From: Acetobacteraceae bacterium
GTDB lineage: Bacteria > Pseudomonadota > Alphaproteobacteria > Acetobacterales > Acetobacteraceae
DNA length: 64,000 nt
Direction of reading: 5' to 3'
NCBI GenBank assembly: GCA_965199345.1
Contig: CBDARA010000002.1
Coordinates: forward strand, 984,019 to 1,048,018
Part shown: one piece after another, positions 26,037 through 32,423 of the stretch
How positions within the stretch are numbered: position 1 is the first letter of the stretch
How the letters are laid out: each line of letters opens with the position of its first letter
Program-made: the position numbers and the translations under genes
The notes under the pieces: generated by a model
Database searches by the model: none
The model's input: only the letters and a program-made list of their open reading frames with translations
Told to the model about the DNA's origin: nothing

Positions 26037-26407
26037 GATCGGACCGGATGACGATGGAATCGCATTCGTTGCAACACGAATGCGAACCCGTGTCGCGGTC
26101 AACCCCCGCTGGCCTTCGGCCCCGCGAGCGCGCGCCCGATGTGCCGGACGGACGCGCCCGGCCCGGGCCGATCCGGTCCGGTCGACGTCGGGCGATCGAC
26201 CGCCTGTTCGCAGCTTGCGGCGGCATCTTCGCCGGAAAGACCGAGGACAGGAGCAGGCACGTCGGTGTCCGCGCGCCGATCCTCGATCGCCGATGGCAGC
26301 GGCATCCGATGTTTTGGGTCCGGACGACCGGCAGGCCTACCGCGCGTCGCTGATCATCGGGAGCGGCGAGCCGGCGCGGCGCAGGACCTTGACGGGCCGC
26401 GCGCGCG

Positions 26408-26860
26408 TCAGTCGCGATGGAGCGGATCGATCCATCGCACCGCTTCCGGCGGTTCGGCGGGCGTGATGTCGAGGTTCACCACGGTCGCCGTGCTGTCGGA
26501 GCGGACGAGAACGCATTCGAGCGTCTCGTGCGCCGAGGCGTTGATCTCCTGGTGCGGCACGAAAGGCGGCACGTAGATGAAGTCGCCCGGTCCGGCTTCG
26601 GCGACGAACTCGAGCTGCTCGCCCCAGCGCATCCTGGCGCGACCCCGGATCACGTAGATCACGCTCTCGAGCGCGCCGTGGTGGTGCGCGCCGGTCTTGG
26701 CGTCGGGATGGATGTGGACGGTCCCCGCCCAGAGCTTCCGCGCGCCGGTTCGCGCGAAGTCGATCGCGACCGCACGGTCCATCCCGGCGGTCTGGGCGGT
26801 CGCTTCGGAAAGCTGGCCCGCCCCGATCACGCGAACGCCGTCGTTGCGCCAATCCGTCAT
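26408..26860 (-). CDS. cupin domain protein
   Basis: 150 aa from ATG 26860 (RBS GAGGGAAG). Cupin motifs (GAHHHGALESVIYVIRG..., GDFIYVPPFVPHQE). Confidence 0.8.
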   Translation of the reverse strand: MTDWRNDGVRVIGAGQLSEATAQTAGMDRAVAIDFARTGARKLWAGTVHIHPDAKTGAHHHGALESVIYVIRGRARMRWGEQLEFVAEAGPGDFIYVPPFVPHQEINASAHETLECVLVRSDSTATVVNLDITPAEPPEAVRWIDPLHRD

Positions 26861-27029
26861 AAGTCTTCCCTCGATCGCGGCGGCCCGGCGACCGCGCCGC
26901 GCGGCCGTTTCAGTCTCGCCCAAGCCGTCGACACCGCCGAGCGGCGCCGACGGCGGCGATGTGCCGGGATGCGGGAGCTGTCGCGATCTCGGGGAAGCGC
27001 GCCGTGCGCGGCGCCGACACCGCGGACGC

Positions 27030-27803
27030 TCACCAGCAGGTGTAGCCGCCATCGGCGAGTACGATCGATCCCGTCATCAGGCTCGACGCGTCGGACGCGA
27101 GGAACAGCACCACGGACGCGATCTCGTCGGGTTGTCCCACCCGGCCCATCGGCGTCATCTCGAGCCAGGTGTCGCGCATCGCCTGGTCCTGCATGCCGAA
27201 CAGGGTGAGCGGCGTCTCGACATAGGTCGGCGCGACCGCGTTGACCCTGACGCCGCGCGACGCCCACTCCGCCGCGAGGCTCCGCGTCAGATGGTGCACG
27301 CCCGCCTTGGCGGCGTTGTAGGACGCCTGCTGCTGCGGCCTGACGCAGATCTCGCCCGACATCGAGCCGACGTTGACGATCACGCCGCGTCCGCGCCCGA
27401 GCATCGCGCGGCCGAAGGCGCGGCAGCACCAGAAGACACCGTCGAGGTTGACGTCGAGGACCGCGCGCCAGTCGGCGTCGCTCACGGTCTCGGCCGGGAT
27501 GCCGCTTTTGGCGATCCCGGCGTTGGCGACCAGGATGTCGACCGCGCCGAAGCGCGTTTCGAGCGCGGCGGCGGCGCGCTCGACCTGCTCGGCGTCCGTG
27601 ACGTCGAGCGCGATCGCGTCGGCGTCGGCGCCGCTCGCGCGCAGTCGCGCGGCCGCCGTCTCGGCGGCCGGGCCGTCGCGATCGGCGAGCACCACGCGCG
27701 CGCCGGCCTCGGCGAGCGCTTCGGCGCACGCCAGACCGATGCCGCGGGCGCCGCCCGTGACGATCGCGGTGCGGCCCCGAAGGCTGAATTTCTGCAGATA
27801 CAC
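27030..27803 (-). CDS. SDR family oxidoreductase
   Basis: 257 aa. Motifs TGGARGIG, NAG, and the catalytic YNAAK. Confidence 0.9.
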   Translation of the reverse strand: MYLQKFSLRGRTAIVTGGARGIGLACAEALAEAGARVVLADRDGPAAETAAARLRASGADADAIALDVTDAEQVERAAAALETRFGAVDILVANAGIAKSGIPAETVSDADWRAVLDVNLDGVFWCCRAFGRAMLGRGRGVIVNVGSMSGEICVRPQQQASYNAAKAGVHHLTRSLAAEWASRGVRVNAVAPTYVETPLTLFGMQDQAMRDTWLEMTPMGRVGQPDEIASVVLFLASDASSLMTGSIVLADGGYTCW

Positions 27804-27894
27804 GACGCGCCTCCTTCACTCGACCTGGTGCAGCGGGGTGACCGCCGATCGTCTCCGGTCGCGCGGATCGGCGCCGGCAGGGTCGGCGCGGCGT

Positions 27895-28398
27895 TTAACG
27901 CGACCAGGCGGCGATCTGGTCGGCGACGGCCTGCGCCGTCATCGATCGGTCGTTGGCCAGCGCCGTCGGGTCGGACGGGTTCAGCAGCGTGCCGTCGGGG
28001 GCGATGGCGAGCACCGTCGGGACGGCCGCGATCTTGATGCCCCAACGTTCGGCGATGTCGAGATTGCGGTCGAACCGCCCGATATCGATCGACGCGGTCA
28101 CGACGTGAGCCGTGAGCCAGGTGTGCATGGCCGGTTCCGCGAACACGCCCGCCAGCATGCGGCAGTCCGGGCACCAGTTGCCGCCGAAGGCGAGCAGCAC
28201 CGTCCGGTGTTCCTGCCGGCCGCGCGCGAGGGCGGCGTCGGTCACGGCCCGGGCGTCGGCGTTCGTGTCGTAAGGGTGAGCCGCGGGTGGCGCGAGACCG
28301 GCCGGCAGCATCGGCGGTGGCACGGACGCGCGCGACGCCGATCCGGCGAGGCAGCACAGCAGCAGCGGGAGGGCCGGCAGGACATGTCGAGGGCGCAT
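27895..28398 (-). CDS. secreted thioredoxin-fold protein (WCPDC)
   Basis: 167 aa from ATG 28398. Signal peptide (MRPRHVLPALPLLLCCLAGSA). Active site GGNWCPDCR. Confidence 0.8.
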   Translation of the reverse strand: MRPRHVLPALPLLLCCLAGSASRASVPPPMLPAGLAPPAAHPYDTNADARAVTDAALARGRQEHRTVLLAFGGNWCPDCRMLAGVFAEPAMHTWLTAHVVTASIDIGRFDRNLDIAERWGIKIAAVPTVLAIAPDGTLLNPSDPTALANDRSMTAQAVADQIAAWSR

Positions 28399-28687
28399 GA
28401 CGACCGGTTTGTCGTGGGACCGGGACACTGTCCAGTCCGAACGCGAGGGATCGGGCCGGATCGGAGCGCCCACCCGAGCGCGGCCGAGACGGCTCTGACG
28501 GAGCGATCGCCGTTCGATCGGACGCGCGTCGCGCTCGGACGTATGACGCAACCTGATGCGCGTTCCCGCGGCCGGTCGGCCAAAGGAGGACGGACGCCAC
28601 CTTCTGCGACAACGATCGCCTCGGACCGGTGTCCACCCCGGCGCCGTCGCGTATGAGCACGCGGCTGCGCGCGTTCGTCGGCGGGTC

Positions 28688-28764
28688 TGGCGCGCCCTGG
28701 TGGATTCGAACCACCGACCCACAGCTTAGAAGGCTGTTGCTCTATCCGACTGAGCTAAGGGCGC
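28688..28764 (-). tRNA. tRNA-Arg(TCT)
   Basis: The reverse complement folds as a cloverleaf: acceptor GCGCCCT/AGGGCGC, anticodon loop CTTCTAA, T-arm GGTGG-TTCGAAT-CCACC, encoded CCA. Confidence 0.95.
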
Positions 28765-30140: not shown

Positions 30141-30626
30141 TCAGACCGTCCGCGCGAGCGGCGGCACGAACAGCGGCGCGGTGTCCCAGGGAAACAGGAT
30201 CCAGGTGTCCTGGCTCACCTCGGCGACGAAGCTGTCGGTGGCGGCCTTGCCGGCGGGCTTGGCGTAGAGGCAGGCGAAGGTGGCGCGCGGCAGATGTCTC
30301 CTCACCACGGCGGCCGTGTCACCGGTGTCGACGAGGTCGTCGATCACCAGGAACCCGTCGCCGTCGCCGGCGGCGGCCGCCGGCTTGACCAGCACCGGCT
30401 CGGATCGTGCCTCCTCGGCCTGGCCCTCCTGCCCGTAGCTCACGACCGAGACGCTCTCGACCAGCCTGATCTCGAGCTCGCGGGCGATGATCGCGGCCGG
30501 GATCAGGCCGCCGCGCGTCACCGCGACGATGCCGCGGAACGGACCTCGGGCGATCAACTGGCCCGCGAGCGCGCGGGCATCGCGGTGAAGCTGGTCCCAG
30601 GTCACGGTGGCGTAGGCGATCGGCAT
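30141..30626 (-). CDS. gpt: xanthine-guanine phosphoribosyltransferase
   Basis: 161 aa from ATG 30626. VTWDQLHRDARALA...IVAVTRGGLIPAAIIARELEIR...FLVIDDLVDTGDTA...AKPAG...QDTWILFPWD aligns along its length with E. coli Gpt as I remember it. Confidence 0.9.
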   Translation of the reverse strand: MPIAYATVTWDQLHRDARALAGQLIARGPFRGIVAVTRGGLIPAAIIARELEIRLVESVSVVSYGQEGQAEEARSEPVLVKPAAAAGDGDGFLVIDDLVDTGDTAAVVRRHLPRATFACLYAKPAGKAATDSFVAEVSQDTWILFPWDTAPLFVPPLARTV

Positions 30627-30961
30627 CAGGAAAGCGTCCCGCCGTTCGGCACCGGGCGTTCCGGCCCCGCGAGCGCGATCAGACCGCCCGCGTCCGGCAC
30701 GCCGAGGCAGAGCACCTCGCGCGTAGACCGGCCGATGCGGCGGGACGGCAGCGCGACCACCAGCGCCGGCCGTCCGACCAGCGCCTCCGGTGCGTGGAGC
30801 GCGGTCAGCTGCGCCGAGGAGCGGCGGAGGCCGAGCGCCGCGCCGAGATCGACCGTGAGCTTGGACGCGGCTTGCCGCGTCTCTGGAAACGCGTGTGCGG
30901 CGACCACCGTGCCGACGCGGATGTCGAGCTTCGCGAAATCGTCGATCGTCGCCTCGGCCAT
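30626..30961 (-). CDS. csaA: tRNA-binding domain protein (CsaA-like)
   Basis: 111 aa from ATG 30961 (IDDFAKLDIRVGTVVAA...KLTVDLGA...SSAQLT). TGATG overlap with gpt. Confidence 0.85.
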   Translation of the reverse strand: MAEATIDDFAKLDIRVGTVVAAHAFPETRQAASKLTVDLGAALGLRRSSAQLTALHAPEALVGRPALVVALPSRRIGRSTREVLCLGVPDAGGLIALAGPERPVPNGGTLS

Positions 30962-31031
30962 TGCTGCTTGTCGCCTGCCGTTCCCCTGTTGCCAAGCGCG
31001 GCCGCCGTCCGTAGAACGGCGCGGCTTGCTG

Positions 31032-31390
31032 GTCGGGCGTAGCTCAGCGGTAGAGCAACCGGCTGTTAGATTTGACACTTCGGCGGGTAACCGTCGTCGC
31101 TTATTCGGGTGAATTCGGTGAAACCCCATCCCGCCGCGTGGCGGAAGGGCAATGCCGAGCCAAGCCGGAGGCAGGGTCGTCCGACGGGTCACGCCGCCTG
31201 ACGTCGCTTCCGGAAGGTGTAGAGACTAGGCGGTGAGGGACCCTTCCGATAACCCGCCCTAGAGCGCCCGACACCCTCCCGGCCCTGTCTCGGCAGTGCG
31301 TCGCGGGTGAAGACATAGTCCGACACCGCCAGGAATGGCGGCAACGGTTGAACCGGTTGGTCGTAGGTTCGAATCCTACCGCCCGAGCCA
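31032..31390 (+). tRNA. tRNA-Asn(GTT) interrupted by a 284-nt intron (exons 31032-31066 and 31351-31390)
   Basis: The joined exons give a 75-nt cloverleaf: TCGGGCG TA GCTC AGCGGTA GAGC A ACCGG CTGTTAA CCGGT TGGTC GTAGG TTCGAAT CCTAC CGCCCGA G CCA. Confidence 0.88.
31067..31350 (+). ncRNA. group I intron (IC3-like ribozyme, no ORF)
   Basis: Follows exon U and ends in G. The core blocks GGCAATGCCGAGCCAAGC (31147-31164) and GAAGGTGTAGAGACTAG (31212-31228) nearly match the Azoarcus tRNA-Ile intron as I remember it. Also has a GNRA hairpin at 31080-31095 and a candidate guide GACA at 31073-31076. Confidence 0.85.
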
Positions 31391-31409
31391 CAAGCACCCC
31401 CGATCCGCG

Positions 31410-32423
31410 ATGACGAACGAGACCGGGCGCCCGATCCGACGTCGATCCGCGCTTGCCGGCGGCGGCACGTGGCTCGTGCTCGGCCGGGCGGCGGACGCCG
31501 CCGACCCGCACGCCGCCGATGCGTCGCGCCCGTTCGTGCTCGGCTGGCGCGAGGTCTCGCCTTCCGGCGTGATCGTTCTGGCGGCCGAGCAGGAGGGCCT
31601 GTTCGCCAAATACGGCGTGTCGGTGACGTTGCGGGCCGAGCGGACCGGCGATCCGCCGTTCGCGTCGCTGCTGGCGTCCGGCACCCTCGACGGGGCCGTC
31701 GCGCCGGCGCCGTTGCTGCTCGACCCGCTCCGGCGCGGCCTCGACGCGAGGTTCACCGCCGGTCTCTCGGGCGGCGGGCTCCGATTGCTGGCCGGCCGCC
31801 ACCCCCGTCTGCGCCACATCGAGGACATGAAGGGACGCAGGATCGGGATCGCGAACCCGGACGGGCCGGCGCGCCTGTTCTTCTCGGTCATGCTGCGACG
31901 GAAGGGCATCAACCCGTTCGCCGAGGTGACCTGGGTCACGGTCCCGACCAGCTCCATGGACGCCGCACTCGGGGCGGGGACGATCGACGCGATCGCGGTG
32001 TCCGATCCGGACGCCTTCCGGCTGATGCGGGCGGGGCGGCTGACCGCCGTCGCGACCAACGTGTCGGGTTCGTATCGCGATCGCACCTACGCCGCGCTGA
32101 TCCTGCGCGGCCCCTGCTTGCGGGGCGAGGCGCGGGTTCGCGCGGCCGGGCTCACGCGCGCGCTGCTCGACGGTGCCCGTTTCGTGGCGACCAGGACCGC
32201 GGCGGCGGCCGACCTCGCCGGCACGATCGCGCCCGACCTCCCGCCGGAGGCCCGCCGCGCCATGCTGGGCGGCGAGGCGCCCGACCGGCACCCGACCGGC
32301 GACGCGCTCGTCGACGACATCGCTGCCTACACCGACGAACTCAGGCTGCTGGGCACGATGCCATTCGAGCTCAACGCCGGACGCTTCGCGCGCGGCGTCT
32401 GCGACGACGTGCTGAAGACGTAG
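31410..32423 (+). CDS. periplasmic substrate-binding protein, NMT1/SsuA-TauA-like, Tat signal
   Basis: ATG 31410 lies just after the tRNA exon. Twin-arginine signal (GRPIRRRSALAGGG...AADA). SBP-like body (GIANPDGPARLFFSVMLRRKGINP...). Confidence 0.78.
   Translation: MTNETGRPIRRRSALAGGGTWLVLGRAADAADPHAADASRPFVLGWREVSPSGVIVLAAEQEGLFAKYGVSVTLRAERTGDPPFASLLASGTLDGAVAPAPLLLDPLRRGLDARFTAGLSGGGLRLLAGRHPRLRHIEDMKGRRIGIANPDGPARLFFSVMLRRKGINPFAEVTWVTVPTSSMDAALGAGTIDAIAVSDPDAFRLMRAGRLTAVATNVSGSYRDRTYAALILRGPCLRGEARVRAAGLTRALLDGARFVATRTAAAADLAGTIAPDLPPEARRAMLGGEAPDRHPTGDALVDDIAAYTDELRLLGTMPFELNAGRFARGVCDDVLKT

Follow-up and report, generated by a model that had tools for sequence, protein, structure and literature searches.

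Reinhold-Hurek and Shub reportedly described, in 1992, an IC3 intron in the pre-tRNA-Ile(CAU) of Azoarcus sp. BH72. In the preprint by Williams (bioRxiv 2020), which draws on a data set from January 2017, the bacterial tRNA hosts of group I introns are raised from four classical types (Leu.3Ug, Arg.5Ug, fMet.2Ug and Ile2.5Ug) to 21, and the seed alignment already includes a tRNA-Asn host, Pam37.Asn.4Ug. Here we analyse a stretch of 64,000 nucleotides (nt) from an Acetobacteraceae bacterium (assembly GCA_965199345.1, contig CBDARA010000002.1, positions 984,019 to 1,048,018), which we call the window; all positions below refer to the whole window, forward strand. Our analysis supports the view that two halves of a tRNA-Asn(GUU) gene are separated, after the third anticodon base, by a group I intron without an open reading frame (ORF). 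A group I intron inside tRNA-Asn(GUU) had been claimed by an initial annotation made from the letters of the sequence, and the claim is borne out by a full-length Rfam match, a P1-P9 fold, covariation and seven orthologues.

The exons, once joined, form a 75-nt cloverleaf, identified by ARAGORN as tRNA-Asn(gtt), and on the genomic sequence with introns allowed the same program returns tRNA-Asn i(36,283). The 5' exon supplies the acceptor 5' strand, the D arm, the anticodon-stem 5' strand and the loop nucleotides C32 U33 G34 U35 U36; the 3' exon supplies A37 A38, the anticodon-stem 3' strand, the variable loop, the T arm, the acceptor 3' strand and the discriminator G, and ends in an encoded CCA (31388-31390). 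The cloverleaf has the anticodon GUU, the discriminator G73 and a U1-A72 pair, features whose roles as identity elements are familiar from E. coli tRNA-Asn, and its D arm and T stem recur unchanged in the tRNA-Asn genes of Acetobacteraceae KSS8 and Rhizosaccharibacter radicis, which have no intron. The initial annotation thus had the cloverleaf and its CCA right, and each string that it quoted occurs exactly once in the window; however, five of its six coordinate pairs lie one base too low (the 3' half, 31351-31390, is correctly placed), the 5' half being 31033-31067 instead of 31032-31066 and the intervening sequence 283 nt (31068-31350) instead of 284 nt.

The splice sites are defined by several concurring features. 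The insertion lies after U36 and before A37, and the last base of the intron is G: the terminal (omega) G31350, followed by AACCGG, is the same in all seven orthologues. Both the U31067•G31074 (U36•G) wobble at the 5' splice site and the guide UUGACA (31072-31077), which is complementary to the ligated UGUU/AA, are invariant in 7/7 orthologues; the guide can therefore hold both exons, through P1 and a P10 of two base pairs (bp). It had been claimed that the intron begins right after the third anticodon base, a U, with a U•G pair in P1 and a terminal G, which agrees with what we find, and the proposed pairing of a GACA guide with exon TGTT also stands once the guide is moved to 31074-31077. In the window, CUGUU/...G/AA is the sole register that combines U(-1), a terminal G and an intact loop, and the Asn register after U36 is the only one common to all seven orthologues.

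A search of the 601-nt stretch 30900-31500 in E-value mode, of the kind that the initial annotation had proposed, matched Rfam RF00028 (Intron_gpI) over the full model (1-253) at 31056-31342, with 48.8 bits and E=2.2e-11. The Rfam alignment puts P1 on the exon-intron junction, J3/4-P4-J4/5 on AAUUCGGUGAAA, P6'-J6/7-P7 on GAAGGUGUAGAGACUA and J8/7-P7' on GAAGACAUAGUCC, followed by a GNRA-capped P9. A 24-base core pattern (AGAGACTA..AGCGCCC..GANATAGTCC) has matches in none of 100 shuffles of the window, and chance is excluded as the source of the group I match. The only ORFs that overlap 31068-31350 are mechanical ones of 51-54 amino acids (aa), and the intron has no endonuclease ORF, in keeping with its earlier description as a bare ribozyme.

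The fold was drawn by hand from the Rfam alignment and the consensus structure in the Williams 2020 seed alignment, and all helices from P1 to P9 form (Table 1); the P10 that the initial annotation had wanted in the drawing could form as well. P1 comprises 5 bp. P7 forms a pseudoknot with P3 and is presumably, by homology with other group I introns, the guanosine-binding helix. The GNRA hairpin noticed earlier is P2, with its position corrected to 31081-31096; its loop is GUAA in the window and GAAA in the other orthologues, and one of its pairs alternates between G•U and G-C. Two blocks had been singled out for their likeness to the Azoarcus core and labelled as P7 and J8/7. The likeness, at most one base of difference each, is real (one difference and none), but the labels are wrong: GGCAATGCCGAGCCAAGC (31148-31165) is J5/4-P4'-P6 and GAAGGTGTAGAGACTAG (31213-31229) is P6'-J6/7-P7. 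The 34 nt between P7 and P3' (31229-31262), which the Rfam alignment treats as an insertion, contain a P7.1 hairpin with a conserved loop, UGAGG..CC.AUAA, and a small inner stem (31237-31240 / 31244-31247); much of the extra length of the 3' region, on which the initial annotation had remarked, comes from this hairpin together with a long P8. The intron tail CAACGGUUG is similar to the first bases of the 3' exon, AACCGGUUGG (31351-31360), and could replace the exon in pairing with the anticodon-stem 5' strand (AACCG) over 3-5 bp, an extent that varies among orthologues.

Table 1. Coordinates of the tRNA-Asn locus and of the elements of the intron fold; (7) and (124) denote the distinct orthologues and the subclass members over which pairing was counted.
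Feature	Position	Strand	Basis and remarks
Xanthine phosphoribosyltransferase gene	30141-30626		
111-aa tRNA_bind ORF, divergent, directly upstream of tRNA	30626-30961	-	weak PF01588, 22.8 bits (cut-off 27)
Promoter-like motif TTGCCA, 17-nt spacer, TAGAAC	30989-30994, 31012-31017	+	conservation only
tRNA-Asn 5' exon	31033-31067	+	ARAGORN, spliced and genomic sequence; 100% identical in 7 orthologues
Group I intron, 283 nt, without homing-endonuclease ORF	31068-31350	+	Rfam RF00028 match
P1, exon UGUU and intron A / UGACA	31064-31068 / 31073-31077	+	read from sequence; 35/35 cells paired (7)
P2 hairpin CGGCGG-GUAA-CCGUCG	31081-31096	+	100% paired (7)
P3 5' strand UCGGGUG	31105-31111, pairs with 31265-31271	+	98% paired (7), 98.6% (124)
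P4	31115-31120 / 31153-31158	+	100% paired (7), one compensatory pair; 97.9% (124)
J4/5 AAA and P5, enclosed by P4	P5 31124-31126 / 31147-31149	+	
P5a	31131-31135 / 31140-31144	+	window sequence only; length varies between orthologues
P6	31159-31161 / 31216-31218	+	98.1% paired (124)
P6a	31165-31172 / 31206-31213	+	variable tip; 3 pairs changed on both sides (7); 98.6% paired (124)
P7 5' strand G-(A bulge)-GACUA	31222-31228, pairs with 31316-31321	+	invariant, 100% paired
P7.1-like hairpin, stem GGCGG/CCGCC	31229-31258	+	same element in Williams seed alignment
P3 3' strand CGCCCGA	31265-31271	+	pairing statistics
P8	31272-31276 / 31305-31309	+	100% paired (7); 93.5% (124), 3-7 pair types
P8a	31280-31283 / 31300-31303	+	100% paired (7); variable tip
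J8/7 AAGACA	31310-31315	+	aligned to Rfam consensus gAAGAUAUAGUC
P7 3' strand UAGUCC	31316-31321	+	aligned to Rfam consensus gAAGAUAUAGUC
P9 hairpin CCGCCA-GGAA-UGGCGG, GNRA loop	31326-31341	+	100% paired (7); 86.6% (124)
9-nt tail CAACGGUUG ending in G31350	31342-31350	+	after P9
tRNA-Asn 3' exon	31351-31390	+	ARAGORN; identical in 7 orthologues

Six further distinct introns of 278-295 nt occupy the same tRNA and position at a syntenic locus (L040, L041, L124, L128, L130 and L133); the introns of L131 and L132 are identical to that of L130, and that of L001, whose contig is 98.1% identical to the window overall, is 100% identical to the window intron. These loci were reached through homologues of the xanthine phosphoribosyltransferase and through matches to the core pattern, and they share the order NMT1-type binding protein, tRNA, tRNA_bind ORF, phosphoribosyltransferase. 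The exons are 100% identical in the seven orthologues, the neighbouring xanthine phosphoribosyltransferase is 77-81% identical to that of the window in the intron carriers for which there is a figure, and the intergenic flanks are unalignable. Within the intron, little or no variation is seen in J3/4, J4/5, P7, J8/7, the guide and the terminal G: TTTGACA, in the P1 guide region, is kept in all seven, and J8/7 with the P7 3' strand differs at one base. The tips of P5a, P6a and P8 differ in both length and sequence. One ENA sample, ERZ25067524, holds two Acetobacteraceae genomes with the U36-site intron, L001 and L128, with introns of 283 nt and 292 nt and contig labels of 194x and 3x.

In the drawn structure, 98.9% of the 476 cells counted over the seven distinct orthologues are standard pairs, and five pairs (in P4, P6a and P9, where an A-U pair is replaced by G-C) are changed on both sides; sliding the partners by 1-3 columns as a control reduced pairing to 33-45%, with at most two changes on both sides. 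We also aligned 124 distinct subclass members by MAFFT, the structure not being used. Variable positions in this alignment show up to seven pair types, several of them Watson-Crick; the outer pairs of P3 alternate between UA, CG and GC, those of P4 between AU, GC and CG, and P9 has 4-7 pair types per position, whereas a slide of one column leaves pairing at 27-60%. The invariance of P7 among the 124 sequences is partly forced by the search pattern. Covariation, in the seven orthologues and in the 124 relatives, supports the core helices P3-P9 including the P3/P7 pseudoknot. Together these patterns of conservation make a strong case that the ribozyme is under constraint and presumably active, within a tRNA gene that works.

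A promoter-like motif ends 15 nt upstream of the tRNA-Asn 5' end. TTGCCA-N17-TAGAAC/G is kept in 7/7 orthologous loci, with only the last base of the second hexamer varying (C or G), and the flank around it is unalignable among the same loci. We take 30989-31017 to be a putative promoter by its conservation. In the scan for terminators, a single terminator-like match was returned, inside the intron and on the wrong strand.

We propose, with a probability of roughly 0.84, that the locus is an expressed tRNA-Asn(GUU) gene, split between U36 and A37 by a 283-nt ORF-less ribozyme that would remove itself through the two-step guanosine-initiated pathway and so provide the cell's tRNA-Asn. The conserved motif, some 40 nt upstream, would drive transcription of the precursor; the guide UUGACA would pair with exon U33-U36 to form P1 with its U36•G wobble; exogenous guanosine bound in P7 would attack the 5' splice site; the terminal G (31350) would then take the place of guanosine in the binding site while the guide holds A37-A38 (P10); and the freed 3'-OH of U36 would attack the 3' splice site, yielding a 75-nt tRNA-Asn, with ligated exons reading GGCUGUUAACCGG across the junction, and the excised intron. 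The exons, intron boundaries, family match, fold, conservation and covariation are direct observations, from which we infer transcription, the splicing chemistry and the need of splicing for a functional tRNA-Asn.

Several observations weigh against this proposal. All seven examples of the intron come from metagenome-assembled genomes (MAGs) or metagenome contigs of uncultured Acetobacteraceae, none of them cultured; the seven orthologues show only modest covariation, and one of them served as the basis for drawing the structure; a strict sigma-70 scan returned no promoter at the tRNA-Asn locus; and a second, intact tRNA-Asn gene may be present elsewhere in the genome. The Rfam score of the window intron lies 1.2 bits below the gathering score of RF00028 (50 bits), the orthologues ranging from 42.4 to 55.4 bits (55.4, above the gathering score, for L040, and 42.4-43.5 for four others listed). 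Finally, the minimum free energy (MFE) fold of 31056-31362 is non-native and no better than those of shuffles (z=-1.17), a result that is expected for a GC-rich pseudoknotted RNA yet gives no support.

A first alternative is that the intron is removed in vivo but that efficient splicing needs a protein helper, an RNA chaperone or a tRNA-binding protein. The very high GC content of the 283-nt RNA and its non-native MFE fold suggest a risk of misfolding; many group I introns are protein-dependent in vivo; and the ORF directly upstream, on the opposite strand, is Trbp111/CsaA-like, with homologues in relatives that carry the tRNA_bind domain in precomputed tables. However, genomes with and without the intron alike have this ORF paired with the xanthine phosphoribosyltransferase gene, and the pair is also found in relatives with neither an intron nor a tRNA at the locus, so that the linkage is not specific to the intron. 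GNRA-capped P2 and P9 speak instead for self-contained tertiary packing, and the small bacterial tRNA introns tested (Azoarcus, Anabaena and Agrobacterium) self-splice in vitro. We regard the need for a helper as unlikely.

We give still less credence to the locus being a splicing-dead relic, that is, a tRNA pseudogene with a decaying intron in a cell that obtains its tRNA-Asn from another gene. The search for tRNA-Asn was confined to the window, the Rfam score falls just short of the gathering score, and there is a U-C mismatch in P3 of one orthologue and G·A mismatches in P6a of two. Yet the exons are identical in seven lineages, the strands of the catalytic core hardly vary if at all, P4, P6a and P9 have undergone compensatory changes, and the promoter-like motif is conserved; pairing at 98.9% would not persist in a decaying intron while the flanks diverge beyond alignment. 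Splicing in another register, giving a tRNA with a different anticodon (e.g. CU/...G/UUGAA, for Gln(UUG), in the window), can be dismissed as highly improbable: formal U(-1)/terminal-G alternatives exist in the window and in L040 and L041, the latter called tRNA-His(GUG) by ARAGORN in what is a miscall, but they differ between orthologues whereas all seven allow the Asn register after U36, only U36 faces the G of the guide, the guide is exactly complementary to UGUU/AA, and the D arm and T stem match the intronless tRNA-Asn of relatives.

With its conserved P7.1 hairpin, the intron belongs to a widespread subclass of bacterial tRNA introns. In the Williams seed alignment (bioRxiv 2020), the P7.1 element is also found in Pam37.Asn.4Ug, Dba165.Lys.2Ug, Mba55.Phe.2Ug and Mga42.Leu.1Ug. 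Scanning one genome per GTDB species with the 24-base pattern gave at least 120 matches; those listed include Cyanobacteria, Patescibacteria, Nitrospirota, Acidobacteriota, Planctomycetota, Burkholderiales, Myxococcota and others, and the main hosts among them (L002-L121) are tRNA-Asn (after U35) and tRNA-Phe (before G34). The P7.1 element occurs as 110 distinct sequences in 121 loci, with a variable closing stem and the conserved loop; RNAfold closes most of the versions that we inspected with a stem, the stem sequences differing widely.

The initial annotation implied that tRNA-Asn was a novel host, which does not hold: Asn.4Ug is among the entries of the Williams 2020 alignment, and tRNA-Asn split after U35 is the commonest host in the 120 genomes listed (about 48, or about 40%), in Cyanobacteria, Nitrospirota, Acidobacteriota, Patescibacteria, Firmicutes and others. 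The test that picked out these loci, a permissive one, asked for an anticodon stem of 5 bp, CUGUUAA as the loop, U at -1 and G as the last intron base; looser tests gave about 27 tRNA-Phe and about 17 CAU tRNAs among the matches listed. A tRNA-Asn intron after U36 is present among the same matches only in L040 and L041, and in the sequences examined here this type was found only in the Acetobacteraceae clade; a metagenome scan aimed at further U36-site Asn introns returned two tRNA-Thr introns only. Our literature search for tRNA-Asn group I introns found the Williams preprint alone, and no Asn.5Ug stands among the type labels of its seed alignment (bioRxiv 2020). The U36 site of tRNA-Asn is thus probably, though not certainly, unlisted so far; judged by accession series, the assemblies that carry it appear to be more recent than the Williams data set. 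Our fuller suggestion, to which we would give somewhat less than even odds, is that "Asn.5Ug" is an unlisted type, confined to uncultured Acetobacteraceae, that arose through re-targeting or a slide and lies in the only tRNA-Asn gene of these genomes.

The isotype and position calls of ARAGORN for introns proved unreliable and were replaced by explicit tests of stem, loop, U(-1) and terminal G. Its tRNA-Gln calls for seven Burkholderiales loci (L010, L012, L013, L054, L078, L082 and L088), which imply intron ends other than U and G, were rejected; by the U(-1)/terminal-G test these are CAU tRNAs (Met or Ile2) split after U36, and they include Comamonas testosteroni and Giesbergeria sinuosa. 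The Ile2 introns of Acidovorax and Burkholderia in the tRNAscan-SE 2.0 paper match these loci. Many Asn.4Ug loci (L002, L008, L019, L033, L039, L052, L056, L063 and others) also permit another U(-1)/terminal-G register, shifted upstream by two bases, which would give a tRNA-Thr-like loop (CUUGUAA or CUCGUAA). This is probably a merely formal ambiguity, from intron ends in ..GUG or ..GCG, and it illustrates how easily isotypes are miscalled.

The seven U36-site introns form a tight group, with distances of 0.05-0.17 over 212 well-occupied core columns and all else at 0.28 or more. The nearest non-orthologue of the window intron is L066, in position 5 of a tRNA-Thr(UGU) from a Proteobacteria MAG (core distance 0.325), which shares with it the P2 sequence CUUCGGCNGGURACNGYCGUCG; Asn.4Ug introns of Nitrospirota and Rokubacteria and CAU.5Ug introns of Burkholderiales are also near. 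Arg(CCU).5Ug (Agrobacterium), Thr.5Ug and the Met/Ile2(CAU).5Ug introns of Burkholderiales likewise lie between U36 and A37; these position-5 introns of other A37 tRNAs differ in host and guide and by about 33-38% in the core, and with such divergence no direct donor can be named. The intron may be a re-targeted proteobacterial position-5 intron (Thr or Ile2-like), or it may have arisen by a one-base slide of the widespread Asn.4Ug with a re-written guide; core distances do not separate the two lines of descent.

The neighbourhood bears on the history of the locus. The xanthine phosphoribosyltransferase of the window is 75% identical to that of KSS8, 72% to that of R. radicis and 71-74% to those of Kozakia, Asaia and Acetobacter, which puts the window in Acetobacteraceae. 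KSS8 and R. radicis have an intronless tRNA-Asn in the same intergenic gap (L125:2499-2573 (+) and L126:2472-2546 (+)), which argues for a working tRNA-Asn locus; it lies on the opposite strand, and 5/7 acceptor pairs and most anticodon-stem pairs are different, so that intron gain coincides with a local rearrangement, an inversion or replacement of the tRNA gene. In more distant relatives, no tRNA was found in the corresponding gap. Relative to the window, phosphoribosyltransferase identity is 77-81% for the carriers with a figure and 72-75% for the two relatives that keep an intronless tRNA-Asn, yet L127, at 78%, has no tRNA at the locus, and the correlation with the intron is not strict. 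The distribution is consistent with one gain followed by vertical descent in an uncultured Acetobacteraceae clade. Neither the locus, compared by BLAST with plasmids, nor the intron, compared with phages, gave a match, and no mobile vector was found.

Elsewhere in the window, about 2.4 kilobases (26219-28614) are missing from the 98.1%-identical contig L001. The segment ends about 70 nt before a tRNA-Arg(tct) (28688-28764), its sole recognisable ORF encodes a cupin domain (26408-27052, minus strand), and it may be a strain-specific islet beside a tRNA gene.

The tRNA-Asn gene of the window, apparently a working one, was missed both by ARAGORN at default settings and by the Rfam scan at the gathering threshold, and a genome of this clade could therefore seem to lack tRNA-Asn in standard annotation. 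If the intron interrupts the only tRNA-Asn of these genomes, decoding of AAC and AAU, and the later modifications Q34 and t6A37, would depend on ribozyme activity. The locus adds the insertion site between U36 and A37 of tRNA-Asn to the common one between U35 and U36, and the two sites together offer a natural example of guide re-specification for the neighbouring phosphodiester bond; what is known of group I introns and their host range is left unchanged, and no new mechanism is involved. As a separate observation, the tRNA-Ser(tga) that ARAGORN reports at 395-480 is absent from the four tRNA matches of the Rfam scan at the gathering threshold.

Compared with the Azoarcus intron (Aol6.Ile2.5Ug in the Williams 2020 seed alignment), the window blocks GGCAAYGCCGAGCCAAGC and GAAGGUGUAGAGACUAG show one difference and none, respectively. 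Both introns are inserted after nucleotide 36 and before A37; both have a 5-bp P1 with a 4-nt loop and GNRA loops L2 and L9, and lack P2.1 and P5abc. They differ in host (pre-tRNA-Ile(CAU) of Azoarcus sp. BH72 vs. tRNA-Asn) and in architecture: the Azoarcus intron (about 205 nt) has nothing between P7 and P3' and a shorter P8, whereas in the window intron P5a, P6a and P8 are extended and a P7.1 hairpin of 30 nt is present. Splicing is experimentally demonstrated for Azoarcus and predicted here from sequence. The label "IC3-like" is thus only partly right: the core strands resemble those of the reference IC3 tRNA introns in two blocks, but the conserved P7.1 hairpin is absent from Azoarcus and departs from the compact IC3 architecture.

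Asn.4Ug and the window intron share the tRNA, the anticodon loop and the subclass, and neither has an ORF; they also share P3 UCGGGUG followed by AAUUC, the P7.1 loop GAGG..CC.AUAA, the P3' strand AGCGCCCGA and GNRA-capped P2 and P9. Asn.4Ug is inserted between U35 and U36, one base upstream of the window intron, which lies between U36 and A37 and thus in position 5; its guide GCAGC pairs with GCUGU, whereas that of the window intron, (UU)GACA, pairs with UGUU; and the core distance between the Asn.4Ug group and the U36 group is at least 0.32, well above the range within the U36 group. The tRNA-Asn host is not new, and what may be new is only the site of insertion, shifted downstream by one base from where such introns usually lie.

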